Positions 1,590 to 16,208 are shown, counted from the first letter of the stretch. The stretch: DNA of 64,000 bases from Thermodesulfobacteriota bacterium (GCA_049320885.1 JBMORA010000049.1:1-64000), one strand, 5' to 3'. Program-made: numbers and translations. Notes: generated from the letters alone by a model not told the origin.

Positions 1590-4199
1590 TCAGCCCCGTG
1601 ACATCAGGATTTCCCAGTTTTCTCCCGGTTCGTTGGTCTTGACTTCCTTTACCGTCACGCCACGGACATTTTCCTTGAGGACGACGGCCGCCTGACGGCC
1701 GTGGATTCTGGTGCCGGCATAAATGACACCGCTTGCCTGCAGAATGGCCTGGGCTTTGTTTTTTTCAGCCCATTTCAGAATGGCGTTTTTTTCATTACCG
1801 ATGACTTCTATGCCGGAAATGATCTGTTCGATTTCCTCCATGGATTGGGAAATTTCCGCCTCCAGCTGTTCCTGTTCGGGGAAAAGCCCTTTCAGCTGTT
1901 CGGCTGCCTCCCTGGATGACGCCTCCAGACGCTGCAATTCCAGCAGGGTGTCTTTCAGTTCATCCACCTTCCCCTGTTGTTGCAGTTCCGCAATCCGTTT
2001 GGAAAGGTTCCGGCGGGCGATATCGGAGCGGTCCTGAATCTGGGCGAGATCGGCGATGCGTTTCTGCAGGGCCTCCATGCCGGCGGTTCTGGTTTCATAT
2101 TCCGACTGCAATTTTTGCAGTATTTCGGTTTTTTCCGCGTGGCGGAAACCATAGGCCTGAATCCGCTTGCGGACATTCTCATCCACACCGAGCTGGATCT
2201 TGCAGGGCTCGGTTACATCGGTGCCGATGTTCTTGGTCTTGATGCCGAGTTTTGCGGCCACATAAGAGGAGATGATGGCGCCTCTTTCGCCGTTGAATTC
2301 CCCGCTGGCCCTGATTTTTGAATTCCGGACTTCTTTCTGGATAGTGACGCTGCCGAAGGATTTGATGTTGGCATGGTCGATGAATTTGGCGTTGACGTCG
2401 CCCTCTGATAATATTTTCGCCCCCAGAATGCCCCCTTTTACCGTAACATTTCCCGACGCCTCGATTTCGGCGTTGAAGATTTCGGCCGCGGTGATATTGC
2501 CGCCCACCACCCGGAATCCGTCCCGGACAGCACCGTTGATATGGATATTGCCGGCGAACTGGATATTGCCGGTGCTGTAATCCACGTCGCCCTCGATATT
2601 CAATTCGTCCAGGACGGAAATCCTGCCGGCCTTGGTGAGATTCGGCTCACCATCGATGGCGGCCGTCACCCGCAGGCCGTCCTCGGAAAGTAACGCGCCT
2701 GCATCGCACAGGAGCAGGATATCCTCGGTTTCCGGCGGCGGAATGGAATTCCCCAGGATATCAATGCCGGGACGGCCGGGTTGGGCAGGTATTTTTTCAG
2801 CGATGACCGCGCCTTTGGATACGCGGGGACGCTCGCCTCTTTCCCGATAGTCAATGCCGCCATCTTCACGGATCTTGCCGGCGCGCAAATAATCGGTGGT
2901 AAAATAGTAACGGACGGCGGCGTCCAGGCCGGGTTCGGGAGGAGAACCTTTGGCCACCAGCAGGGAGGAATTTTCCCGGCTGTCCAGCTCCAGGAAATTC
3001 AGGATGACGTCGTCCGGAACGATGCCGTGGCGCACACCGTTTGCAGAAAGAAGGGATTTGACGGCCGCGAGCATTTCTTTTTGCGGCGGGGTTCCGGGGC
3101 TGATGATGATGTGGGCGGACATGCCGTCCGGCGATACGACCAGGCTGAACGGATTGGTCGTATCGCCGTCCGGTGGAGGGGCTGATTCCTGTTCCGCGGC
3201 CTTTACTTCTTTCTTTTCCGTCTCTTTTTTCTCTTCCGCTGTTTCCGGTATTTCCGTTGGTTCCGGTAGTATTTCCACCGCTTCCTGTTCTATCCAGATC
3301 AGGTCGCACTGTTCCCGGGTGATCACGGAATTGGCCACCAGGATGTCCCCCAACCGCCTGCAGGTATGTATGCGCTTATATTCTTCCGCCTGTTCGTCCA
3401 GGGCAGCCGTGACCTGTTCCTGGGAAGCATAGCCTTTTTGGATGGCGATGGCGCCGAACCGTTTCCCCATTCTCCGCTTGGTGGCCACGAGGAGATCGTC
3501 GATTCGGGCCTGAGAAACCATGCCTCGTTCCTTGAGGATGACATCCAACGGTGTTTTTTTTCCGGCTAAATGCAACCGATGTTGAATGGTAAAAGCCTCG
3601 GCCAGATGCTTTTTGGTGACAAACCGATTGGCCATGGCGATTTTGGCCAGGACCCGATCCTGCTTGGTGGTATCCTTTATGGTGAAACCCTCATTTCGAA
3701 GAAGGCGCGGCGGGGGGCTTCCACCGGCGGTCGGGATGGTTGAGGGGCCCTTGGCTGCAAACGGTTTCGCTTCCGGGGGAGCGAGGTGGTCCGGGACGCT
3801 GTCTGCGCGTCGGCTTTCATTGAAAGCCAACAGGCGCCGGCCGGCTTCTATCTGAGCAGTCAAATGGCGGGCATCCGCTGGCGCCCGGATGACCACGTCT
3901 GCCCCGGATTGGAGAGCCCGGACAAGATCGGCGACGGCGTAGGTTTCGGATATCAGGATGATATATACATACGAGGGCAGGGCGGAGTCCCGGAGGAGAC
4001 GACACAGGTCCGGGACGTCCACATCTGCGGGATCCGCCGGAGACTTCTCCGTCAGAATCACGGCAAAGGGTTTCTGGGACATCCCCGCCAGGGCATCTTT
4101 TACACCTTCGGCGGTCAGCAGTTGGCGGCCTTCGGTTTCCAATTCCCGGAGCAGGGCGGTTCTCCTTGCCGCAATTTGATCGACCAGCAGAATTTTCAT
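1590..4199 (-). CDS. pseudo-receiver + MshEN-like repeats + DUF342 (FapA-family) protein
   Basis: N-terminal REC fold (MKILLVD...GADVVIRAP); four RLG-type repeats; DUF342 hallmarks (VAKGSPPEPGLDA, GDVDYSTGNIQFAGNIHINGAVRDGFRV); C-terminal coiled coil. Confidence 0.85.
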   Translation of the reverse strand: MKILLVDQIAARRTALLRELETEGRQLLTAEGVKDALAGMSQKPFAVILTEKSPADPADVDVPDLCRLLRDSALPSYVYIILISETYAVADLVRALQSGADVVIRAPADARHLTAQIEAGRRLLAFNESRRADSVPDHLAPPEAKPFAAKGPSTIPTAGGSPPPRLLRNEGFTIKDTTKQDRVLAKIAMANRFVTKKHLAEAFTIQHRLHLAGKKTPLDVILKERGMVSQARIDDLLVATKRRMGKRFGAIAIQKGYASQEQVTAALDEQAEEYKRIHTCRRLGDILVANSVITREQCDLIWIEQEAVEILPEPTEIPETAEEKKETEKKEVKAAEQESAPPPDGDTTNPFSLVVSPDGMSAHIIISPGTPPQKEMLAAVKSLLSANGVRHGIVPDDVILNFLELDSRENSSLLVAKGSPPEPGLDAAVRYYFTTDYLRAGKIREDGGIDYRERGERPRVSKGAVIAEKIPAQPGRPGIDILGNSIPPPETEDILLLCDAGALLSEDGLRVTAAIDGEPNLTKAGRISVLDELNIEGDVDYSTGNIQFAGNIHINGAVRDGFRVVGGNITAAEIFNAEIEASGNVTVKGGILGAKILSEGDVNAKFIDHANIKSFGSVTIQKEVRNSKIRASGEFNGERGAIISSYVAAKLGIKTKNIGTDVTEPCKIQLGVDENVRKRIQAYGFRHAEKTEILQKLQSEYETRTAGMEALQKRIADLAQIQDRSDIARRNLSKRIAELQQQGKVDELKDTLLELQRLEASSREAAEQLKGLFPEQEQLEAEISQSMEEIEQIISGIEVIGNEKNAILKWAEKNKAQAILQASGVIYAGTRIHGRQAAVVLKENVRGVTVKEVKTNEPGENWEILMSRG

Positions 4200-4284
4200 C
4201 AACGGTGAACCCCGTTCCCGGAAGCCTCCGCTCCCGCCATGGGTCAAAACTGATTACAGGTTGGAAATATTGAAAAGACAGCAT

Positions 4285-4314
4285 ATTATACTGTATGTTG
4301 AGTGAAATTGTCAA
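4285..4314 (-). promoter_or_regulatory. sigma-70 promoter with consensus hexamers
   Basis: Minus strand TTGACA-18bp-TATAAT upstream of the DUF342 gene. Confidence 0.75.
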
Positions 4315-4496: not shown

Positions 4497-5540
4497 CTAT
4501 AGCCAGCGGATCGTCCGGGGATCATAGGACAGATGGATCTTTTTCCCGGGCAGGAGACGGGCGGCGGCGGCGGTCCGGGAATCGATGCTGGCGTGCCAAT
4601 CCAGACCACCGGCGGTGAGGGTCAGGTGGAGGGCGGTGGTTCCGGGCTCCAGCGTCATGTTGCGGATGAAGGCTTGCAATGTGTACTTCCCCGCCAAATC
4701 CTCCTGGGGGAAAGACTGCACCGTGAGGGTGCGGTGGTCCAGCAGGGCGCAGGCTTCCGGATGAGGGGGGCGGACGGTGAGGAACAACTGGCCGTCATGA
4801 AGCGCTTTTTCCCACAACCCGTCCTTGCGGGAACGCCAGGGGCCGAATATCAAGTTGGTCCGGCCTTCCCCAACGATCCGGCCTTTATACAAATGGAGGA
4901 CTCGGTCGCAAACCTGCTCCAGCCATTCCCAGTCGTGACTGGCGATGACCAGGGACGCACCCCATTGTTCCCGGGCGCTGTGAACCGCATCCTTGATGCG
5001 CTGGACACTGGCGGCGTCGACGCCGGAGGTAGGTTCGTCCAGGAGTAAAACTTCCGTCCGCAGCGCCAGTCTGGCCGCCAGGGCCACCCGACGGGCCTCC
5101 CCTCCGGACAACTCATGGTGTTGCCTTTGACAAAATTCTTCCGGATCCAGACCGACAAGTCCCATGGCGTCGCGAACCGCGTCTTCCGGGTTCCGGTTGG
5201 TCTTCCGGAGGGACAGACCGTAGGCCACATTGTGAAACACCTTGCGCTTCAGAAGATAGGGTTCCTGGGGCAGCAGGGCGATGTGAAAGCGGGAGATGTC
5301 GGAAAAGGGTTTCAGGGGATGATTCTTGAAGCGGATCTGGCCTTCCGTGGGAAGGGACGCCCCGGCAAGCAGGGCCAGGAGGGTGCTCTTACCGCTGCCG
5401 TTGGGACCGATCAGGCCGACGATGGATTCGGGTTCAATCGTCAGGTGATCCAGTTCCAGGACCGGTTGATCCTGATGGCGATGCCGCAGATTCCGGATTT
5501 CGTATATCGCATCGGTCATGTCGGTTTGCCTTGCCTCCAT
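4497..5540 (-). CDS. tupC: tungstate ABC transporter ATP-binding protein
   Basis: Walker A GPNGSGKS, signature LSGGE, Walker B LLLDEP; follows tupAB. Confidence 0.85.
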   Translation of the reverse strand: MEARQTDMTDAIYEIRNLRHRHQDQPVLELDHLTIEPESIVGLIGPNGSGKSTLLALLAGASLPTEGQIRFKNHPLKPFSDISRFHIALLPQEPYLLKRKVFHNVAYGLSLRKTNRNPEDAVRDAMGLVGLDPEEFCQRQHHELSGGEARRVALAARLALRTEVLLLDEPTSGVDAASVQRIKDAVHSAREQWGASLVIASHDWEWLEQVCDRVLHLYKGRIVGEGRTNLIFGPWRSRKDGLWEKALHDGQLFLTVRPPHPEACALLDHRTLTVQSFPQEDLAGKYTLQAFIRNMTLEPGTTALHLTLTAGGLDWHASIDSRTAAAARLLPGKKIHLSYDPRTIRWL

Positions 5541-5546
5541 ATGGGA

Positions 5547-6233
5547 TTATTGCCTGCGCAAAAACCACAGGGACAGGTTGACGCCGAAGGCGATCAGGAT
5601 CAGCACCAGACCCAGGGCGATCCCCATGCTGAAAAGTCCCTTGCTGGTTTCAAGGGCGATGGCCGTCGTGATGGTGCGGGTATGCCATTTGATATTGCCG
5701 CCCACCATTAAAGAAATGCCCACCTCGGTCAATACACGGCCGTAGGCGTTGATGGCGGCGGACAAAATGCCAAAGCGGACTTCCCGGAGAATTCCGGCAA
5801 ACAGTTGGCGGCGGTCAGCGCCCAGGGAGATCAGGGCCAGGCGCAGCTGCCGGTCCGTTGCTTCGACGGCGGAGGCGCAAAGCGCGATCACGATGGGAAG
5901 CGCCAGGATCGATTGCCCGAGGGCGATTCCGGGAAGGGTGAAGAGCAGGCCCAGGCCGCCCAGGGGACCGCTGTTGGAAAGAAGCGCATAGACCATGAGT
6001 CCGATGAAGACCGTGGGCAGGGCCATCAGGGTGTCCGCGACAAAGCGGAGCTGGCGTTTCCCGCGGAAATCAAAATACCCCAGGGCAAAACCTGCGGGGA
6101 TCCCGACGGTCAGGCTGATGCACATGGAGTACGTGGTGACCTGCAGGGTGGCGATGATGGCCGAGTAAGTCTGGGGGTCGCCCCGCAGCAGTAGCAGAAA
6201 TGCGGTCTGGAGACCTGTCAGGATGAAATCCAT
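5547..6233 (-). CDS. tupB: tungstate ABC transporter permease
   Basis: Hydrophobic; EVGISLMVGGNIKWHTRTITTAIALET motif of TupB. Confidence 0.9.
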   Translation of the reverse strand: MDFILTGLQTAFLLLLRGDPQTYSAIIATLQVTTYSMCISLTVGIPAGFALGYFDFRGKRQLRFVADTLMALPTVFIGLMVYALLSNSGPLGGLGLLFTLPGIALGQSILALPIVIALCASAVEATDRQLRLALISLGADRRQLFAGILREVRFGILSAAINAYGRVLTEVGISLMVGGNIKWHTRTITTAIALETSKGLFSMGIALGLVLILIAFGVNLSLWFLRRQ

Positions 6234-6242
6234 GCTTCCGGC

Positions 6243-7082
6243 CTATTTCGCGTTGGGCGTAAACAACGGTTTCCCGAGCAGCTGAAATCCTGCGATGGCT
6301 TTCTGGCCTTCCGCTCCGGCCAGCCACGCCGATAATTTCATGACCAGATCGTATTTACTGTTGTTGCATTTTTTCGGGTTCACAGCGATGACGCTGTACT
6401 GATTTTGCAGGGTCGTGTCGCCTTCCACCAGGATTTTCAGCCGGGGATCTCCGCCTTTGACGTCCTCGTATTTGATATAGGTACCCCGATCGGTCAGGCA
6501 ATAGCCGTTTCGTTCCTCGGCGACATGGATGGTGGCCAGCATTCCCTGGCCGGTCTGAATATACCATGCTTCTTTGTCCGGTACGGTCTGCACCGATCGC
6601 CGCCATAATTCCTTTTCCATGGCATGGGTTCCGGACTCATCCCCCCGGCTGGCGAAGACGGCGCCCTTGGCGCGCATGGCGGCAAAGGCCGCGACGGCGG
6701 TTTTTCCACGGATGGCGGCGGGATCGGAAGAGGGCCCGATGAGGATGAAATCGTTGAACATGATTTCCCGCCGGTCGACACCGTACCCTTTTTCCAGATA
6801 TTCCTTTTCCGCAATGGGATCATGCACCATAAGGACATCCACATCGCAGTTCTGTCCCAGGGCCAGGGCTTTTCCGGTTCCCGTGGCCGTCCATTTGACT
6901 TCGATCCCCGAGGACTTGGTAAACAAGGGCATAAGATAATCCAGCAATCCGGTGTTGTCGGTGCTGGTGGTGGTGGCCATCAGCAGGGACGGAGGAGCGG
7001 CCGCGGCCGCTGTTGCGGTGAACAGCAGAAAAACGACCAGCAATCGGCAGATGCCGGCAATCTGTTTTGGATCAAAATTCAT
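6243..7082 (-). CDS. tupA: tungstate ABC transporter substrate-binding protein
   Basis: Signal peptide; ATTTSTDNTGLLD, GTGKAL, SRGDESGTH and TDRGTY motifs. Confidence 0.92.
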   Translation of the reverse strand: MNFDPKQIAGICRLLVVFLLFTATAAAAAPPSLLMATTTSTDNTGLLDYLMPLFTKSSGIEVKWTATGTGKALALGQNCDVDVLMVHDPIAEKEYLEKGYGVDRREIMFNDFILIGPSSDPAAIRGKTAVAAFAAMRAKGAVFASRGDESGTHAMEKELWRRSVQTVPDKEAWYIQTGQGMLATIHVAEERNGYCLTDRGTYIKYEDVKGGDPRLKILVEGDTTLQNQYSVIAVNPKKCNNSKYDLVMKLSAWLAGAEGQKAIAGFQLLGKPLFTPNAK

Positions 7083-7116
7083 GGCTGTCTCCTTTTGTCG
7101 GGGATTCCATTTATAT

Positions 7117-8052
7117 TCAAGCGTGTTGCGCCTTTAGGGCCTCCTCGGGCGGAAAGATCATGTTTCCGGCAAGGCTGAGATCATATCCCTGGAATTCGTT
7201 GGCCATTTCCCGAAAAGCGGGAGCATGGAGGAGGCTCAGGAAGGCCTGGACGGCCGGATCGAAAAACCGTTCCCGGGTCATCAGGAGATCATACCGCTCC
7301 CAGCGCAGGGGGATGAAACCGAGATCGAGGAGCGAGGCCACCGGACGGATGGCGGGGCCGGCATGGGCTCTTCCGGACACGATTTCCAGGCCCACGTCCA
7401 GGTGGCGGTTGACTTCGCGGCCGTAGCCCTCGATTTTTTCCCCGGCAATGCCCGCCTTTTTCAATTCCCGATCGAACAGGAGGCGGGTGCCGGTCTGCAG
7501 GGAGCGGTTCACGATCCGGATCCCCGGATTGCCCAGATCCCGGACGGTGTATAGGTTCCGGGGATTGTCTTTTTCCATCAACACCCCCTGTTCCCGGCGG
7601 CAGAAATTCACCACCACCGGCACGCTTCCCAGGGCTTGCCGGGCGAAATCGAAATTGTATTCGGACCCGTTTTCCTGGAGCAGATGACTGGAAGCCACAT
7701 GGCAGAGGTTGCGGCGCAGAGCTCTCAGGCCGCCCATGCTGCCGACGTTGGCGAAGGCGATCAGATGGTCCGGAAAACGGTTATGGAACAGCGAGATGGT
7801 GCGATCGAGCAGGAGGTCGTTGCTTCCGGCAAGGATCAGCAGGCTTTCGGAGGAAGGGGCGTCTTTTGCCGGCGCCGGGAAATTCAGGGTGTGATTTTCC
7901 ACCCATTGCTCGACGAGGTGCTGGGGGAAAAGCCATTTGCCGGTGACTTTGGAGGCCGGCAGCCCTTTTTCCGCCACCAGGGTGTATACCATCTTTTCAT
8001 TCACACCTAACAAACGGGCCACATCCCTGGTGGACAACATGCTCTTGATCAT
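7117..8052 (-). CDS. excisionase-type HTH + periplasmic-binding-protein-like (molybdate/tungstate-sensing) transcriptional regulator
   Basis: LSTRDVARLLGVNEKMVYTLV...LPASKVTGKWLFP (HTH_17-like); GSND, VGSMGGL, NRSLQTGTR, ERYDL of the PBP-like domain; GGAGG RBS before ATG 8052. Confidence 0.88.
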   Translation of the reverse strand: MIKSMLSTRDVARLLGVNEKMVYTLVAEKGLPASKVTGKWLFPQHLVEQWVENHTLNFPAPAKDAPSSESLLILAGSNDLLLDRTISLFHNRFPDHLIAFANVGSMGGLRALRRNLCHVASSHLLQENGSEYNFDFARQALGSVPVVVNFCRREQGVLMEKDNPRNLYTVRDLGNPGIRIVNRSLQTGTRLLFDRELKKAGIAGEKIEGYGREVNRHLDVGLEIVSGRAHAGPAIRPVASLLDLGFIPLRWERYDLLMTRERFFDPAVQAFLSLLHAPAFREMANEFQGYDLSLAGNMIFPPEEALKAQHA

Positions 8053-8124
8053 GTTTTCGATCCTCCAACACATTTTGTCATGATAAGTTCCGAATTTCCA
8101 AATCCGGAGCCGGCGTAATGAAAA

Positions 8125-8154
8125 AAATGACAATAAAGAACCATAAATTACCGT
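8125..8154. promoter_or_regulatory. triple 10-bp direct repeat, candidate operator
   Basis: AAATGACAAT-AAAGAACCAT-AAATTACCGT upstream of the regulator gene; a similar array lies at 11481-11510. Confidence 0.55.
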
Positions 8155-8236
8155 ACAAGTCAACAGTCGTGTGTTCTGATTGGAATGGATGCGGACATCG
8201 CTCCGGTGGCTGATGCAGGCGGGTTGCGGCCGGGGG

Positions 8237-8271
8237 TTCCCCCCTTGCATGGCGGGCATGCAAGGGGGGAA
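8237..8271 (-). terminator. 15-bp stem-loop downstream of the diheme protein gene
   Basis: TTCCCCCCTTGCATG-gcggg-CATGCAAGGGGGGAA; no clear U-tract. Confidence 0.55.
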
Positions 8272-8285
8272 CACACCGGAAGGGA

Positions 8286-10037
8286 TCAGAACCACAGGGT
8301 GGAGATGAAACAGATATCGTCATCGTCATCCAGTTCCGTGCTGCCGGATGAGGAGGTCACAGCCAGCGCTCCCGGATCGACGATGACGCCGTTGGCAATG
8401 CCGTCGCCGTCCGTGGCGGCATCACCGTCGGTGAGCTGCAGGGTGATGGTCTGGTCACCGTCGTTGCTGCCGAAGGAGACCTGTCTCCAGCCGTTGGTGG
8501 CGTCGATCTTATAGTATTTGCTGCCGACGGCCACATCGGAGGGCATTTCCAGTTCCACCGTCACCGTGGCGCCCGGCGTCAGATCGGTGATGCGAAAAGA
8601 GAACACGCCGTAGGGAAAGGAGGCTGCGGGTTTGTTCACCTGGGAGACACCGGGATCATCGTCCCCCATACACAGGACGTCGGCGAAATAGCCCTGGGAA
8701 GTATGCAGCAATACATGGGCGTTGCCGTTGGCATGGCGGAATCGCGCCGTATCCCGGTCCGCGTAATCCGCAACCCCGTCGCTATCATGATCGGCGCCGG
8801 CGCTGCCTTTTTCCTCACTGTCCAGCACGCCGTTGGCATTGGAATCGGTGCTGTCAATGGCACCGTAAACGATGATCTTGTTCTGATCCACATAATTCCA
8901 GCCGGATTCCAGGACATTGATGTCGGTGGTGCCTTCCGGCAGGGGCGAGATCTTGATGATGGTGGCGCTGCGAGTGCAGGCCCCGGCATTGTGATCCCAG
9001 CCGTTGGTATACGGCCAGATGACGTCCTGGTTGGCGGCCTTGCTGGACTGGTCCGGCGGGTTGGGGGATTTCTGGGGCACCACCACCCGGAAAGGCCCTT
9101 CTCCGTCCAGTTTGTTCTCCTGGGTCAGGACACCGGGAGTCAGATAAACCCCTTCGTGCAGGATGGCCAGAATGGCCTTGAGGCCGTTCGTGACCGGTAT
9201 GGAATCCCCGTTGGCGCGTCCGGCGCAGGAGGGGGCGCTGTAATCGCACCAGCCGTCGGTGGGATTTTCCTTCACATCGGCCTGGAGGTCATAGGAGTAG
9301 GTGGCCGGCGGGTACTGATAGTCCTGGTTCGGCATATTGCCGTATACGTGATACATTTCAGGGGAAGACTCGTATTCCAGGGGATGATACTGAGACCATC
9401 CGTCCGGCGCATAGACGGTGATATTGGTGGCCGCGCTGGTGATTCCGGCGTCGTCCAACAGGGTTTTCATGGGAACTCCGCTGTATTGATCATATGAATC
9501 CCCGGAGCGGGAGGTGTTCATGAGCATGAACTGGGTGTGTTGCTCCATGCCTTCCAGTTGTTCCCGGGTGTAGATCCGGTAAGGCGCGGTTTGCAGGCCT
9601 GGATGATCCGAATTGTCACCCGGGAAAGTGCCGGCCGCCAGTTCCGTCTGGTTGGAGTAGGAGTCGCCGTCCGCGTCGGCTCCGTCGATGGCCTTGACTG
9701 CATCGGCGTTGCGGCCGGCTGACTTATACGCCGCACCATAGGAATTGATGGTTGTGGCGATGTCGCCGGCGCCGTCATATCCGTAGGAATAATGGCACCA
9801 CTGGCAGCTGCCCAGTTTGACCTGTTTGCCCTTGCTGTCCGTGTAGGCGCCGCCGCTGTGGCATAAGGCGCAATGATCCAGTTTGGTTCCGGCCAGGGTC
9901 GGGTAGGCTTGTAAAAATTTACCGGCATCCTGCTCGCCTTCGTGATGATAGGCACCATATGCGGTTGCGCTCATCAGAAACAACAATCCGCAACAACAGA
10001 AGGAAATCAGGGTAGGCCAACGCGTTCCTTTCATCAT
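8286..10037 (-). CDS. secreted diheme cytochrome c with GEGP motif, molybdopterin-oxidoreductase-like central domain and C-terminal anchor-like domain
   Basis: Signal peptide; CALCH and CQWCH; YTREQL...YSGVPMKTLLDDAGI...LDGEGPFRVVVPQ; Ca-binding-type DxDxD motifs; FPYGVFSFRI...LTDG...DGDGIANGVIVDPG; ends DDDDDICFISTLWF. Confidence 0.8.
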   Translation of the reverse strand: MMKGTRWPTLISFCCCGLLFLMSATAYGAYHHEGEQDAGKFLQAYPTLAGTKLDHCALCHSGGAYTDSKGKQVKLGSCQWCHYSYGYDGAGDIATTINSYGAAYKSAGRNADAVKAIDGADADGDSYSNQTELAAGTFPGDNSDHPGLQTAPYRIYTREQLEGMEQHTQFMLMNTSRSGDSYDQYSGVPMKTLLDDAGITSAATNITVYAPDGWSQYHPLEYESSPEMYHVYGNMPNQDYQYPPATYSYDLQADVKENPTDGWCDYSAPSCAGRANGDSIPVTNGLKAILAILHEGVYLTPGVLTQENKLDGEGPFRVVVPQKSPNPPDQSSKAANQDVIWPYTNGWDHNAGACTRSATIIKISPLPEGTTDINVLESGWNYVDQNKIIVYGAIDSTDSNANGVLDSEEKGSAGADHDSDGVADYADRDTARFRHANGNAHVLLHTSQGYFADVLCMGDDDPGVSQVNKPAASFPYGVFSFRITDLTPGATVTVELEMPSDVAVGSKYYKIDATNGWRQVSFGSNDGDQTITLQLTDGDAATDGDGIANGVIVDPGALAVTSSSGSTELDDDDDICFISTLWF

Positions 10038-10081
10038 ACTCTACCTCCGTAAAAAAAATGGTTCGGTGATGTAAAGCGGCG

Positions 10082-11377
10082 TCAAAAATCAATGGCAAAC
10101 CGCAGCGTCAAGACGTTTTCCTTATCCACATAGTCGATGGTTCCATCCGGATGCACCTGGATGCGGATGGGATCGGAGAGGTTCGTGAATGTATAGTCGC
10201 CAACCACCTTCACCATGGGATAGAGGATCCAGTTGACCGCCAGGCTGACACTGTCCGCGTCTTCCACGGACACAAAGGTGTCCGGCGTAATCCAGTTTTT
10301 ATCTCCTGAAAAATGGTCGTAGCGCGCGGCCAGAAGAAACGCGCCGTAGGTATGTTCATCCGGGTTGAAGTTGGTGTTGGGGTAGATTGGTTGCAATACT
10401 CCCTCGCTGAAAACCGGTTGTTCGCCGGTCAGGCACCACAGCAGGCTGCCGTACCAGGCGGAGAAGGAGGCGTCCCGGGGAGGATTTCCCGCGGGCTTCA
10501 GATCCCGGTAGGAAAGGGTCATGTATTCCCCCTGGAGCGCGAAGGAGTCATGGGACCAGGCGGTTTCAGCGGCGATCCGGTCACGGGATTCAGCATCCTG
10601 CAGAACGCCGAATTTGGTGTTGGCGGAAAGAACATAGATGTTCCGGGAGATGCCGACCATGCCGGTGCTTTTGACTTTCACATCCACCTGACTGACGTCG
10701 ATGTTGGCGAAAGATCCCGCGCAACCCAGCTGAAAACCCTGGAGCCAGTCCGATTTCATTTCCCGGAAAGGTCGGAATACCAGACGGGCGGTGCATTCCG
10801 GGTCGTCCTGACGGCGGACGGCGGTGGAACCGTCGTCCCCGCTGCCGTTGAATACGCCCACCGCATAACGAACGCCGTCCTGGAACAATCCGCCATGCAG
10901 CATCAGGCCCACATCCCGTCCCGGACGAAGGGCGTTTCCCATGCTGCGCTCGGCAAAATAGATTGCTTTATCGGATGTTTGCCATTCAAGACCAAAGGGT
11001 TCCTTGAACTGGCCGAACCGCAGGCTGTGGGGTGCGAAAACCGCTTCCGCATAGGCATCCACCAAGTTGTCGGTTTCATTGCCTTGAAATTCGTATTCCA
11101 TGCCGAAGCGGAACCAGCGGGTCAACTGGCCTCGGAAAATCAGCCGGGACTGACGGATGTCGAAGCGGTTGTCCGGACGTTCGTTTTCCATATAACGGCG
11201 GTAATCCGCGTAAAAAGAGCCGCCCAGGCGCAGCGCCATGCCGCCTTCCTCTTCGGATTGGATGTAAAAACCGCCATTATATCCGGCGAAAAAAATTCGT
11301 TCCGCCGCCACCGGGGCAGGCAGGAAAACAGCCAACAGAAGCATAAAACGGAAATAGAACCTTGCGGATGATTTCAT
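10082..11377 (-). CDS. OprO/OprP-family anion-selective outer-membrane porin
   Basis: Signal peptide; FDIRQSRL, LRFGQFKEPFGLE...FAERS, GRDVGLMLHG; C-terminal Phe (LRFAIDF). Confidence 0.85.
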   Translation of the reverse strand: MKSSARFYFRFMLLLAVFLPAPVAAERIFFAGYNGGFYIQSEEEGGMALRLGGSFYADYRRYMENERPDNRFDIRQSRLIFRGQLTRWFRFGMEYEFQGNETDNLVDAYAEAVFAPHSLRFGQFKEPFGLEWQTSDKAIYFAERSMGNALRPGRDVGLMLHGGLFQDGVRYAVGVFNGSGDDGSTAVRRQDDPECTARLVFRPFREMKSDWLQGFQLGCAGSFANIDVSQVDVKVKSTGMVGISRNIYVLSANTKFGVLQDAESRDRIAAETAWSHDSFALQGEYMTLSYRDLKPAGNPPRDASFSAWYGSLLWCLTGEQPVFSEGVLQPIYPNTNFNPDEHTYGAFLLAARYDHFSGDKNWITPDTFVSVEDADSVSLAVNWILYPMVKVVGDYTFTNLSDPIRIQVHPDGTIDYVDKENVLTLRFAIDF

Positions 11378-11480
11378 GAACAGCCTGTTTTGAAAGAGTC
11401 ACAATAATAAGGTTTGGAAATAGGCGGATTGGTCTTTATAAGTCAATATGAAATTTCTGATTCATCCTGAATTGGATTAA

Positions 11481-11510
11481 AAATTACAATAAATGACAAA
11501 TAATAACATA
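11481..11510. promoter_or_regulatory. triple 10-bp direct repeat, candidate operator
   Basis: AAATTACAAT-AAATGACAAA-TAATAACATA upstream of the porin gene. Confidence 0.55.
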
Positions 11511-11601: not shown

Positions 11602-13221
11602 TTATTGATTTTTTTGCCAGAATGGATGGATCAGATCCTCGAAGATGGTCATGGCGGCTCCGGCTCCGTGTCCGGAAGCGGTGACGATCTGCTTGAATCC
11701 GCCGACCACATCGCCCGCGGCGTAGATGCCCGGTATGGTGGTGCGGTACTGGTTATGGACAACGTAGCCGTCTTCGGTCAGGTTCAGGCCGAGCTTGCGG
11801 GCCAAATCCGTGGCCGGCAGGTAACCGATGGCGATGAACACCCCGCTGACGCCGAGAGTGGTGTCCCTGCCGGTCCGGCTGTTGTGGAGCAGAACCTCCT
11901 CGACCTCGTGCTTGCCCCGGATTTCCTTGATTTCCGTGTTGAACAGAACGGGGATATCATTCTGGGAGAGTTGCCGGCTGAGAATTTCCTGGGCCTTGAG
12001 GCGATCCCCCCGATGAATCAGGGTGACCTCGGCGCCCATGTTTTTCAGATACAGGGCTTCGGTGACGGCGCTGTTGCCGCCGCCCACCATGACCACTTTC
12101 CGGCCGGCGAACAGCGGTCCGTCACAGGTGCTGCAGTAGCTGACCCCGTGACCCGATAACCGGGATTCTCCGGGAACGCCGAGATGCCGATGAACGGCTC
12201 CGGTGGCCAGCAAAATGGTTTTTGTCTTGAATTTTCGCCGGCTGGTCTGAACGACGAAGGGCGATCCGGTGGTGATATCCATGACCTCTTCCCCTGGAAA
12301 AATCTGGACATATTCCAATGCATGGGTGACCATGATGTCCACCAGGGTTTTACCGCCCACCTGTTTCAGACCGGGATAATTTTCCACTATGGGGGTGGTG
12401 GCCACCTGGCCGCCGAGAACGCCTTTTTCCACCACCACGGATTTCAAGCCGCTGCGGGCCGCGTAAATACCGGCGGTGAGTCCGGCGGGCCCGCCACCGA
12501 TGATCACCAGGTCGGTCTCGACTTCCTCGGCATCGCTTTCCGGAATGAAAATGGTCTGCTGGACCATTTTTTCCAGGGAGGAGACAAACAGTTCTTCCGT
12601 TTGCGCGCCCTGGGCGATGAGCACGTCATCGGCATAGGTCTGGGGTACCGAATGGGCCGAATACTGTTCCGCCAGATCCGGATTGGCCTGAACATCGATG
12701 AGTTCCAGCGTGAGAATGTCCGGTCGCGCCACCGTAGCTTTCAGGGCGTTCAAGGCCTGCTGGGGACAATACGGGCAGGTGGGGCTGACGAAAACCTTCA
12801 CCGTCCGGGGAGCCTTGATCCGCTGCAGAACGGATTCCGCGCTGGGGCTCAGGTTGCTGCGGCCGAAACCGATCAGCAGGATGGCCTCCAGAAAGATGCG
12901 GCCTTCTTCGCCGATGGGCGCCCCCAGCCAGCGGATGGCGTGATGTTCCGGATCGAACAGGATGGTGGGGGCATGGGTGACATTGTGGCGGCGGGCCATG
13001 TCATGTCCCAGGTCGAACTCCTTGAGGGTGATCCGGTCCGTCAATCGCCGGAAAAACCGGATGGCCTGGCGGGCGGCGTCACTGAATACATCGTTCTTAC
13101 CGCTCCGGGTGAACAGCACCAGGGGAATATCCTGCGGCAGATCGGCAAGCATCTTTTTCAGTTGTCGTTCGATTTCCTGCTCGTGGTGGGCCTGTTCACT
13201 GTGTACATGATTCGCCGTCAT
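11602..13221 (-). CDS. trxB: thioredoxin reductase fused to N-terminal thioredoxin-fold domains (AhpF-like architecture)
   Basis: CPYC in the Trx domain; GGGPAG FAD motif; SYCSTCDG; GGGNSA; IYAAGD. Confidence 0.85.
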   Translation of the reverse strand: MTANHVHSEQAHHEQEIERQLKKMLADLPQDIPLVLFTRSGKNDVFSDAARQAIRFFRRLTDRITLKEFDLGHDMARRHNVTHAPTILFDPEHHAIRWLGAPIGEEGRIFLEAILLIGFGRSNLSPSAESVLQRIKAPRTVKVFVSPTCPYCPQQALNALKATVARPDILTLELIDVQANPDLAEQYSAHSVPQTYADDVLIAQGAQTEELFVSSLEKMVQQTIFIPESDAEEVETDLVIIGGGPAGLTAGIYAARSGLKSVVVEKGVLGGQVATTPIVENYPGLKQVGGKTLVDIMVTHALEYVQIFPGEEVMDITTGSPFVVQTSRRKFKTKTILLATGAVHRHLGVPGESRLSGHGVSYCSTCDGPLFAGRKVVMVGGGNSAVTEALYLKNMGAEVTLIHRGDRLKAQEILSRQLSQNDIPVLFNTEIKEIRGKHEVEEVLLHNSRTGRDTTLGVSGVFIAIGYLPATDLARKLGLNLTEDGYVVHNQYRTTIPGIYAAGDVVGGFKQIVTASGHGAGAAMTIFEDLIHPFWQKNQ

Positions 13222-13729: not shown

Positions 13730-14098
13730 ATGAAGACTGCTAAATCCAATATCATGGTTGTCGACGACGACGTTCAATTCCGGTCCATGGCGAAAACCCT
13801 GCTGACCTATCAGATGAGGGGCGACGTCCTTTCCTGTGAAAACGGCCAGGCGGCGCTGTCGCATCTGGAGATGAAAAACAATATCGATATCATCCTTTCC
13901 GATATCAACATGCCGGAAATGAACGGGTTGGAGCTGTTGACCCGCATCAAGCAGAAGTATCCGAACAAAACCTGCATCCTGATGTCCGGTGATCCGACCA
14001 ATGAAAAAACCGCCCGGGAAATGGGGGCGGACGCTTACATCAACAAGCCGTTTCACATCAATGAGATCGCCGAACTGCTCCAGACCTTCGTCAAATAA
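13730..14098 (+). CDS. single-domain response regulator (REC)
   Basis: VVDDD, ILSDINMPEMNG, YINKPF. Confidence 0.88.
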   Translation: MKTAKSNIMVVDDDVQFRSMAKTLLTYQMRGDVLSCENGQAALSHLEMKNNIDIILSDINMPEMNGLELLTRIKQKYPNKTCILMSGDPTNEKTAREMGADAYINKPFHINEIAELLQTFVK

Positions 14099-14107
14099 CG
14101 ATACCCC

Positions 14108-14788
14108 ATGAGACTGCTGCTGGTGGAGGATGATCGGAAGATCGCCGCGTTCATAACCAAGGGGTTCCGGGCCGAAGGGTTTGCCGTGGACCACGTCGTG
14201 GAAGGCGATGAGGGGTTGCACCTGGCCCTGACCGAAACATACGCCGTCGCCATCATCGATGTCATGCTGCCGAAAATGGACGGTCTGACCCTGATCGCGG
14301 AAATGCGGCGGGCCGGAATCGCCACGCCGGTGATTATCCTGAGCGCCAAGGGCCTGGTGGAGGACCGGGTGAAAGGCCTGCAGACCGGCGGAGACGACTA
14401 CCTCACCAAACCTTTCGCCTTTTCCGAGCTGCTTGCCCGGGTTCAGGCCCTGATCCGCCGCACCACCGGCGCCTCGGAGCCCACCCAACTCTCCGCCGCG
14501 GATGTCACCATGAACCTGATCACCCGGGAAGTGTTTCGGGCCGGCCGGAAAATCGAACTTCAGCCCCTGGAGTTTTCCCTGCTGGAATATCTGATGCGCA
14601 ATCCCGGACGGGTGATTTCCAAAACCATGATCATGGAACATGTCTGGGATTATTATTTCGACCCGGGATCGAATGTCGTGGAATCGAGAATTTACAAGCT
14701 GCGGGAGAAAATCGACAAGGGGTTTCCCTTCAAGCTGATTCATACGGTGCGCGGAGTCGGATATGTCCTTCGGGAAAAGGCTGAGTAG
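14108..14788 (+). CDS. OmpR-family response regulator (CusR/CopR-like)
   Basis: LLVEDD, IIDVMLP, DDYLTKPF, winged helix ending IHTVRGVGY. Confidence 0.92.
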   Translation: MRLLLVEDDRKIAAFITKGFRAEGFAVDHVVEGDEGLHLALTETYAVAIIDVMLPKMDGLTLIAEMRRAGIATPVIILSAKGLVEDRVKGLQTGGDDYLTKPFAFSELLARVQALIRRTTGASEPTQLSAADVTMNLITREVFRAGRKIELQPLEFSLLEYLMRNPGRVISKTMIMEHVWDYYFDPGSNVVESRIYKLREKIDKGFPFKLIHTVRGVGYVLREKAE

Positions 14789-16208
14789 CGTCCGGCATAC
14801 TTTGGCTTTTCGGTTGACGCTCTGGTATGCGAGCCTCTTCATGGTCTCTTCCTGCGTGGCCTTCTTTTTTTTCTATCTGCTCATCACCCTCGTGGTCAAA
14901 AACCAGACCGATCAGGATTTGCTGAGTTCGGTTCAGACCATCTCCTCCATTTACCGGCTCCAGGGCATGGACGCCGTCAGGCGCCAGGCCGTGATCGAAT
15001 CCCAGGCGGCGGGTGAGAAAAAGATTTTTTTCCGTTTTCTGTATCCCAATGGAACCGTCTTTTCCTCCTCCAATATCACCCATTGGCGCGGCATCGATAT
15101 CGGTCGCGCGGCCGTCGGCCGCCTGCTGGAGACGGGAAACCCGGTGTTCGAGGACGTGAACATCTCCGGGCAGCAGCTGAAAGTCCGGTTGCTGTATGCC
15201 GTCATCGGTCCCGGCATCATCGTCCAGCTGGGTAGGTCCATGGAAGCCCATGATCAGTTTCTGGTGGCGTTTCGAAAAATGTTCATGCTCACCATGGCGA
15301 GTCTGTTTGTTCTCGCCGTGCTGATCGGCTGGTTCCTGGCGCGCAGGGCTTTGGTGGGTGTGGAGCGGGTAAGCCGCACGGCCCAGCGGATTTCCGCCGG
15401 CAGCCTGAAAGAGCGGGTGCCGGTGGGAAACAAGGAGGATGAAATCGATCAACTGGCCCTCACCTTCAACCAGATGCTGGACCGGATTCAGACCCTCGTG
15501 GACGGAATCAAGGAAATGAGCGACAACATCGCCCATGATTTAAAAAGTCCCGTAACCCGGATCCGCGGTCTGGCCGAGGTCACCCTGACCTCGGGAAGTT
15601 CCATGGGAGACTACGAGCAGATGGCTGCCAGCACCGTGGAGGAATGCGACCGCCTGCTGGAAATGATCAACACCATGCTGCTGATCTCCAGAACCGAAGC
15701 CGGCGCGTTTTCCCCGCACCGGCAGCCCATGGATTTGTCCGGTCTGGTGGCCAACGCCTGCGACCTGTTTCAGTCCGTTGCCGAGGACAAGGGGATCGCC
15801 ATGTCCTGCGAGCTTTGTCGGCCGGCGGAATTCATGGGGGACGTGCGCCTGCTGCAGCGCATGGTGGCCAATCTCCTCGACAACGCCATCCAGTATACCG
15901 AATCCGGCGGGAGAATCGCCGTCCGGCTGGAATCCGACCCGGAAAAGGGTATTCGGATTTCCGTTACGGATACCGGCATCGGTGTTTCGGAGAAGGCCCT
16001 GCCGCGTATTTTTGAACGCTTCTACCGGGCCGATCCCAGCCGTTCGGAATCCGGGACCGGACTGGGGCTCAGTTTCGCCCGGGCCGTTGCCCGGGCCCAC
16101 GGCGGCGACATCCTGGCGGAAAGCACGCCCGGAAAGGGGAGCTGCTTCACGGTTCATCTGCCGCTGATCCATGCCGATGCGCCGGAAGTTGACAGACCCG
16201 GAAATTGA
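14763..16208 (+). CDS. HAMP sensor histidine kinase
   Basis: Two TM segments, HAMP, H-box IAHDLKSP, NLLDNA, DTGIG, GTGLGL. Confidence 0.92.
   Translation: MSFGKRLSSVRHTLAFRLTLWYASLFMVSSCVAFFFFYLLITLVVKNQTDQDLLSSVQTISSIYRLQGMDAVRRQAVIESQAAGEKKIFFRFLYPNGTVFSSSNITHWRGIDIGRAAVGRLLETGNPVFEDVNISGQQLKVRLLYAVIGPGIIVQLGRSMEAHDQFLVAFRKMFMLTMASLFVLAVLIGWFLARRALVGVERVSRTAQRISAGSLKERVPVGNKEDEIDQLALTFNQMLDRIQTLVDGIKEMSDNIAHDLKSPVTRIRGLAEVTLTSGSSMGDYEQMAASTVEECDRLLEMINTMLLISRTEAGAFSPHRQPMDLSGLVANACDLFQSVAEDKGIAMSCELCRPAEFMGDVRLLQRMVANLLDNAIQYTESGGRIAVRLESDPEKGIRISVTDTGIGVSEKALPRIFERFYRADPSRSESGTGLGLSFARAVARAHGGDILAESTPGKGSCFTVHLPLIHADAPEVDRPGN

Follow-up and report, generated by a model that had tools for sequence, protein, structure and literature searches.

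A 64,000 nt stretch of DNA from a Thermodesulfobacteriota bacterium (GCA_049320885.1, JBMORA010000049.1:1-64000; hereafter the window) carries six minus-strand genes at positions 4497-11510, and an open reading frame (ORF) map confirmed their order as porin, diheme protein, regulator, tupA, tupB and tupC (Table 1). The porin and the diheme protein probably form an uptake module for tungsten scarcity, by which a species bearing tungsten or molybdenum (W/Mo) would be bound, tungstate freed and channelled to TupA. As proposed here, low tungsten would switch on the porin-diheme pair; the exported diheme protein would bind a W/Mo-bearing anion in a cofactor pocket that lacks cysteine; its hemes, in a presumed redox role, would help to free tungstate; and the porin, as an anion channel, would pass the tungstate to TupA. 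The ligand may tentatively be taken as tungstate or thiotungstate. A metal-pterin cofactor lost from other cells, whose metal would then be removed, is a somewhat more doubtful choice, beside which conversion of thiometallates or metal sulfides is one possible option.

Homologous loci were gathered from 401 evenly sampled genomes of the phylum (26 loci) and from a genome collection (64), which after removal of one duplicate (L117, of L033) gave 89 distinct examples. The conserved unit is the porin and diheme gene, the porin lying directly upstream in 61/89 loci (58 of the 82 with at least 1.5 kb of upstream sequence). The first-pass annotation had treated all six genes as one system; the exact order recurs in only two of the 89 loci (L056 and L085), while the pair recurs. 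A tupA gene is found near the diheme gene in 31 loci and a TaoR-type regulator in 18. Any W/Mo gene, i.e., for transport, regulation, storage or cofactor synthesis (moeA-type), is present in 42, and 67 loci carry such a gene, the repeat motif described below or a molybdenum/tungsten cofactor (Moco/Wco) riboswitch. The storage (MoSto) genes, found in five loci, were confirmed by a separate check. A survey of neighbouring genes had been named in the first-pass annotation as the test of the W/Mo link, and the link withstood it.

In the even sample, 25/401 genomes exceed the cut-off of the diheme family model NF041762. A tupA gene lies within about 9 kb in 14 of these 25 carriers, compared with less than 2% expected for one or two copies in genomes of 2.6-6.5 Mb, a comparison in which related genomes are not independent. 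In the reverse test, 17 porin matches (E 5.5e-65 or better; the next at 3.5e-50) were all in carriers, 16 of them adjoining a diheme gene. On the same strand, tupA precedes the porin in five loci, and it follows the diheme gene by no more than 140 nt in eight; judging by this arrangement, the pair and tupA are likely to be co-transcribed in 13 loci. Cultured carriers include Desulfonema magnum, Desulfosarcina cetonica and Desulforhopalus singaporensis.

The six genes of the locus are predicted to form two transcription units, with a perfect 16-bp hairpin between the diheme gene and the regulator. The genes and order described in the first-pass annotation were correct, as were the similar repeat arrays upstream of the porin and the regulator (repeat family D1, period 10, at 8122-8151 and 11478-11507), but the single unit gives way to two, each headed by its own array. 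The regulator start was set at 8052, behind a GGAGG sequence, while the ORF list begins the same frame at 8295. The regulator shows the domain combination of TaoR (HTH_17 plus PBP_like), a family described in PMC11980592, PMC12327845 and PMC10102598 as tungstate-responsive proteins with HTH and PBP domains.

A matrix with a GTtATT core and a period of 10 was seeded by eye and built from porin upstream regions, the best 32 out of 57, excluding the window and L056. Compared with local shuffles, it gave the two window arrays scores of 19.2 (p 0.01) and 16.2 (p 0.02). A 29-nt pattern drawn from the two arrays matched nowhere else in the 64 kb and not once in 100 shuffles, a result that is circular for both. 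A first motif search had converged on porin coding sequence and was discarded. One count of 35/59 is partly circular, the matrix being porin-trained, and held-out sets were relied on; L072 was dropped because its match lay within coding sequence. Ten of 82 held-out regions directly upstream of diheme genes scored, nine of them real promoters of porin-less copies. The motif also occurs upstream of 25/30 separately gathered taoR orthologues (23/28 without the window and its closest relative) and downstream of 0/30. A TTGAC sequence follows within 62 nt of 41/46 porin or diheme sites (4.5% in shuffles), and the spacing is in helical phase, 31 of the 41 being at 3-4 modulo 10. This geometry, with the site upstream of the -35 box, is shared by 19/25 taoR sites, most of which head tup or wtp genes. 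In the window, the porin site lies upstream of its predicted -35, consistent with activation, whereas the regulator site overlaps the promoter spacer, as predicted for repression; among the 25 taoR sites, a -35 box preceding the array is seen only in the window and its closest relative. A consensus promoter scan found no site in the porin or regulator promoter regions. The co-occurrence of the motif with taoR genes suggests that the window regulator binds both arrays. Co-regulation with tungstoenzymes gained little support, as only 2/74 aor/bis-PGD upstream regions reached at least 10 bits, in a set that may include operon-internal genes and split ORFs, and the four aor genes of the host gave none.

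Other lineages appear to control the same pair by RNA. An Rfam search of eight loci chosen by eye gave 15 matches to RF01055 (49-82 bits) above the gathering threshold, distributed over all eight, with one more in L102. An RF01055 element is directly before the porin in seven loci; in L041 one precedes tupA-porin-diheme, and in L102 one precedes a downstream tupA. In printed alignments these RNAs lack P3. PMC2408646 links the P3-less form of the Moco RNA to the tungsten cofactor and describes the RNA of E. coli as an OFF switch. In 9/9 folded riboswitches, a hairpin with a U-run was found that could pair with the conserved CCUCCCG of the aptamer (-9.5 to -25.1 kcal/mol, values without a shuffle control), which is the pattern predicted for ligand-triggered termination (OFF switch). 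The window has no Rfam match. A custom riboswitch model gave only one new strong match in 90 sources; being fitted to the sequences it was trained on, it may overlook further examples. Riboswitch and repeat motif never occur together in any of the 89 loci. The gene pair is thus found with either of two control systems of W type that are unrelated to each other. Tandem P3-less Moco/Wco riboswitches are found at L047:7095-7457, L051:11832-12222 and L049:14425-14740.

The diheme protein exceeds the NF041762 cut-off of 300 bits over its full length. It has a Sec-type signal, a heme domain, a Cys-less SUOX-fold domain, a choice-of-anchor U domain and a CFI-box tail, the fold and the TaoR family membership of the regulator being features that the first-pass annotation overlooked. 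Two CxxCH motifs are present in 120/120 homologues and a CFI-type tail in 103/120. The heme domain has TSP3/Temptin-like look-alikes with scores up to 0.90, a lead only. In a confident predicted model of residues 29-395 (predicted local distance difference test, pLDDT, 90.7), residues 150-366 matched SoxC (Z 12.3; root-mean-square deviation 2.1 over 120 residues), SorT (11.9) and PruR (11.6) in structure comparison. All ten matches with Z of at least 8 were SUOX-family or PruR chains, and the next was at Z 3.5. Profile comparison (hhalign) with 29 SUOX sequences of the phylum gave a probability of 98.0 (E 1.9e-13) and placed Asn174 on the Mo-ligating Cys. Pfam PF00174 scored 12.8 against a cut-off of 24, sequence searches against solved structures gave no useful match, and Foldseek returned no match at E 0.001, its top rows nonetheless being PruR and SUOX chains.

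The Mo-ligand column is Asn in 76 of 78 aligned homologues, with one Asp and one Cys, and is never Cys in 62 more distant near-full-length representatives; in the 29 SUOX sequences from the same phylum, the ligating Cys is at least 90% conserved. The sole aligned homologue with Cys at this position, L058:4946-6394, offers a natural test case. D212, R317 and H349 are invariant in the 78 homologues and position 356 is always Arg or Lys; the alignment places these four on the SUOX DG-Y, P-x-R and K-W motifs, the last lying outside the hhalign stretch and read by eye. In SUOX proteins the residues concerned presumably contact the pterin ring and phosphate. PruR offers a precedent, being described in PMC11194511 as a Cys-less SUOX fold that binds pterins, although its pocket is truncated and has Trp in place of the Cys.

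Exported SUOX molybdoenzymes carry a twin-arginine (Tat) signal, while the presence of c-type hemes implies export by Sec. A simple pattern test detected no twin-arginine motif in any of 119 diheme signal regions, and with export by Sec, as predicted, a pterin ligand would have to be met outside the cytoplasm. The C-termini of the family are highly variable (CFI-box, hydrophobic tails, other domains), as is usual in envelope-anchored proteins, and suggest that the diheme protein is anchored in the envelope, at the surface rather than in the periplasm. Diheme genes in L054, L093, L103 and L112-L115 read as split or frameshifted, through either sequencing error or decay. An exported 134-aa protein encoded between the diheme gene and tupA (L049:10783-11187) has no Pfam or NCBIfam match and belongs to a cluster found in seven loci.

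The porin belongs to the Porin_O_P family both by family hidden Markov model (HMM) and by its beta-barrel fold. Its profile matches only OprO and OprP in PDB (E 3e-33), and its model (pLDDT 90.1) matches OprP with a template modelling (TM) score of 0.78. Twelve positions are Lys or Arg in at least 90% of 57 homologues, some aligning with the OprO RR and ER motifs. The porin is presumed to be anion-selective. The match to the ExtI selenite/tellurite porin model NF040900 is poor (16.2 bits against 150). Sister-clade O/P porins, weaker matches in the reverse test, lie directly upstream of tupA at G312:C27:400998-402107, G360:C26:36001-37110 and G026:C21:3928-5058, in genomes without a full-length diheme gene, and these three are candidate stand-alone tungstate porins.

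The window Tup proteins have the Tup models as their best NCBIfam matches, with the genes in ABC order and a TTTS motif in TupA, which we take to be a mark of the family; yet all score below cut-off (342/400, 278/320 and 165/400 for TupA, TupB and TupC). The TupA cut-off is judged to be lineage-narrow, as it is reached by 0/401 genomes of the phylum. TupA-like genes occur in 232/401 of these genomes and in 22 of the 25 carriers of the diheme gene. The porin, diheme, tupA and full-length regulator genes are each single-copy in the 5.6-Mb genome of the host, and the nearest named relatives are Desulfobacterales. The same genome has four AOR-family and ten molybdopterin-oxidoreductase matches, a ModA-like protein, a MOT1 transporter, an integrase-TOBE regulator and two MoeA. 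The MOT1 gene is divergent from the integrase-TOBE regulator (G000:C9, L153:4385-6849), which is presumably TunR-like, and at G000:C65 (L154:2205-6203) an HTH_3-PBP regulator heads modABC-like genes and a MOSC protein gene. MoaA and MoaC are present in 5/5 carriers tested; cofactor auxotrophy was rejected on this basis, and the metal is therefore a likelier need than the whole cofactor.

Weak NF041762 matches led to a parallel family. Its members are exported and have two Cys-less SUOX-like domains in tandem, in most cases with a CxxCH between the two, and are often fused to a tetrapyrrole-methylase domain. The loci were selected from weak matches and are no even survey. TonB-system genes, TonB/ExbB among them, adjoin in 6/6 annotated loci (a receptor in four), and tupA, TaoR or modABC-like genes are present in three of the six; an amino-acid permease is another neighbour.

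Table 1. Features of the six-gene locus in the window and genes of the parallel tandem SUOX-like family. Coordinates without a locus label refer to the window.
Feature	Position	Strand	Evidence
Porin, OprP/OprO fold	10082-11377	-	PF07396, E 7.6e-31
GEGP diheme protein, 583 aa	8286-10037	-	NF041762, 447.8 bits; two CxxCH
N-terminal heme domain, residues 29-149	9591-9953	-	CxxCH at C56-H60 and C78-H82; H32 invariant; DxDGD loop
SUOX/Moco-binding fold, residues 150-366	8940-9590	-	Predicted structure and profile comparison
Choice-of-anchor U domain (469-560) and CFI-box putative sorting motif (570-581)	8295-8633	-	NF041766 105/32 bits; NF041763 16.1/15.9 bits
Perfect 16-bp inverted repeat 3' of the diheme gene, without U-run	8236-8272		Inverted-repeat search
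Regulator, TaoR/TupR-type (excisionase-like HTH_17 and PBP_like)	7117-8052	-	Domain HMMs
tupA, periplasmic tungstate-binding protein type	6243-7082	-	NF041772, E 1.9e-102; TTTS motif
tupB, permease	5547-6233	-	NF041773, E 5.8e-83
tupC, ATPase	4497-5540	-	Best NCBIfam match NF041774, E 1.8e-48
Repeat array of the porin promoter, 10-bp direct repeats (GTtATT core), predicted TaoR-family site	11479-11507	-	Repeat search, matrix
Porin predicted -35 box (TTGACT), weak -10; 35 nt after the matrix site	11441-11446	-	Sequence
Second array (8123-8151), immediately 3' of TTGACT (8158-8163) and covering the promoter spacer	8123-8163	-	Sequence, matrix
Tandem Cys-less SUOX proteins	L230:3001-4029, 13975-15723; L232:8288-9325; L233:7099-8868; L234:6449-8215		
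Tandem Cys-less SUOX proteins	L235:8406-9416; L236:7716-9491; L237:38-1807		

Upstream of the porin, 11602-13221 (-) encodes a thioredoxin-domain/thioredoxin-reductase fusion (AhpF-like), kept there only in the closest relative, L056. Just past tupC, a perfect TTGACA-18-TATAAT promoter (4285-4314, -) precedes a gene at 1590-4247 for a protein with receiver, cyclic di-GMP-binding (MshE-type) and FapA domains.

Several observations weigh against an uptake module induced by scarcity. No W/Mo mark of any kind was found in 22/89 loci, and 210 of the 232 TupA-bearing genomes are without a full-length diheme gene; since only 22/232 have it, the module is accessory and the gene dispensable. The motif is significant before 0/36 tupA genes and before four of 19 taoR genes near diheme genes, many of the tested genes being operon-internal or divergent. 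A scan of the host genome gave 21 sites of at least 11 bits, most beside unrelated genes, although one falls between MOT1 and the TOBE regulator. No more than three families supply the riboswitch loci, and in a quick tree drawn from its midpoint these lie close to the base. In the proteins, the Trp with which PruR sandwiches its pterin aligns with Ser/Thr in the diheme family, and the window porin has Gln at a position where 96% of homologues have Lys or Arg. The overlapping site of the window taoR-tupABC promoter is opposite in geometry to the porin site, and one aor gene (L174) has the porin-type arrangement. In D. vulgaris replete with W, TaoR reportedly acts as an activator of aor and a repressor of tupABC, and if it activates in replete cells here, the pair would be tungsten-induced. 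The uptake reading has no account of this contrast between the two window sites, which leaves some weight with alternatives in which tungsten is the inducer. The ligand, expression and location of the module are all predictions from sequence.

Uptake is favoured over catalysis because of the OFF riboswitch, the site geometry common to most taoR-tup operons and the likely co-transcription with tupA. One alternative is an extracytoplasmic W/Mo oxidoreductase. Such an enzyme, of the SorAB/SoxCD type and fused to its cytochrome, would use a non-Cys ligand (Asn174 or His349), be induced by tungsten like aor, and receive an oxyanion substrate through the porin. SoxC and SorT/SorA, the top fold matches, do work with c-type cytochromes, the L058 protein has Cys at the ligand position, the activation geometry is common to one aor, and P3-less RNAs precede 'sulphite oxidase' genes in S. 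wolfei (PMC2408646). The Cys is nevertheless missing from 77/78 aligned and 62/62 distant near-full-length homologues, a cytoplasmic cofactor could not be carried out by any of the 119 proteins without a Tat signal, and the tungstoenzyme promoters rarely carry the motif, which together with the OFF-type riboswitch makes the oxidoreductase quite unlikely. Salvage of the whole cofactor is unlikely too, if a little less so. Here the diheme protein would reversibly carry intact Wco, Moco or molybdopterin and keep it reduced for import, in keeping with a pocket that retains its residues and has lost the locking Cys, with a cofactor-sensing riboswitch on the pair and with the TonB-system genes beside the parallel family. 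The metal is favoured over import of the whole cofactor because the partner is TupA, which takes the bare oxyanion, because OprP-type channels are narrow anion pores, and because of the intact MoaA/MoaC; moreover, no recurring transporter other than TupABC at the inner membrane was found among the neighbour clusters of the homologous loci.

Two further alternatives carry less weight. The porin alone might be a tungstate channel, with the diheme protein a non-transport partner such as a PruR-like pterin/redox sensor or an assembly aid, as could be argued from the sister porins that adjoin tupA where the genome has no full-length diheme gene, and from PruR among the best fold matches. That division of labour is improbable, since porin-less diheme loci keep either the repeat motif (the nine promoters) or a tupA neighbour (L034, L035, L050, L101, L102), no recurring signalling partner (including any dcpA-type gene) appeared among the neighbour clusters, and the diheme family keeps two basic pocket residues, whereas in PruR the pocket is truncated and Trp occupies the Cys position. 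Least probable of all is a W/Mo-replete response, in which the pair would reduce or sequester excess molybdate or tungstate at the cell surface. Molybdate is toxic to sulfate reducers (PMC10102598), the ExtI porin-cytochrome system is a precedent in selenite reduction (PMC5877670), MoSto genes are present in five loci and the porin site is opposite in geometry to that of taoR-tupABC; but the OFF-type riboswitch of other lineages and the likely co-transcription with tupA in 13 loci point the other way, and an additional inward anion channel would be a poor defence.

An uptake module of this kind would bear on a largely open question, namely how W/Mo pass the outer membrane and are supplied where sulfide or organic ligands bind them; literature searches on outer-membrane passage found only a route in P. 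aeruginosa with secreted ModA and IcmP. The locus points to a specific channel, to a putative capture protein in which four pocket residues can be tested, and to the DNA and RNA switches that control them, in cultured organisms; the SUOX fold, used in catalysis and in pterin signalling, would thereby gain a third role. In its broadest form, offered as a tentative proposal, anaerobes would draw their tungsten from thiotungstate or from pterin cofactor left behind by dead cells, by means of a heme-powered, envelope-anchored, Cys-less SUOX catcher and an OprP-like channel leading to TupABC, a design that recurs with TonB-dependent receptors. If true, this recurrence would mean that W/Mo acquisition has a general stage at the outer membrane that is so far undescribed.

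TupABC, TaoR, the riboswitch and the protein family names are already known. The first-pass annotation knew of no characterised system with this composition, and literature searches agree in finding the module undescribed, the TaoR regulon paper (Rajeev 2019), whose supplements may list these genes, being beyond their reach. The link of the module to W/Mo acquisition is supported. A search pairing 'GEGP' with 'diheme' found no paper, and the family name NF041762 gives no function, nor does it include the SUOX fold, the porin partner or the regulation. The four downstream genes of the window are of the same families and domains as TupABC and TaoR/TupR of Desulfovibrio vulgaris (DVU0747-0745, DVU3193; PMC10102598), but the locus in the window also places genes for an outer-membrane channel and for an exported cytochrome under the same repeat motif. 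The porin has the fold of the Pseudomonas OprP/OprO phosphate/pyrophosphate porins and basic positions aligned to their RR and ER motifs, but is only about 20% identical, and its context and motifs point to W/Mo rather than phosphate. A porin is also encoded with c-type cytochromes for oxyanion handling in Geobacter ExtHIJKL (PMC5877670), but there the oxyanion is selenite/tellurite, with no SUOX fold or tup link. The P. aeruginosa ModA, secreted by a type VI secretion system (T6SS), and outer-membrane IcmP (cited in PMC11734730) likewise combine extracellular capture with an outer-membrane protein, for molybdate; these proteins are unrelated, with no heme and no porin of the OprP fold. The exported, Cys-less SUOX fold of PruR (PMC11194511) is like that of the diheme protein, but PruR has no hemes and a DcpA signalling partner, whereas the diheme family pairs with a porin and W genes. 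With the SUOX family itself (SoxC, SorA/SorT, MsrP/YedY, sulfite oxidase), the diheme protein shares the Moco-binding fold, the x-G-V/DG/P-x-R motifs and the partnership with c-type heme, and differs in its Asn for the Mo-ligating Cys, two large insertions, fused hemes, an anchor tail and the absence of a Tat signal.

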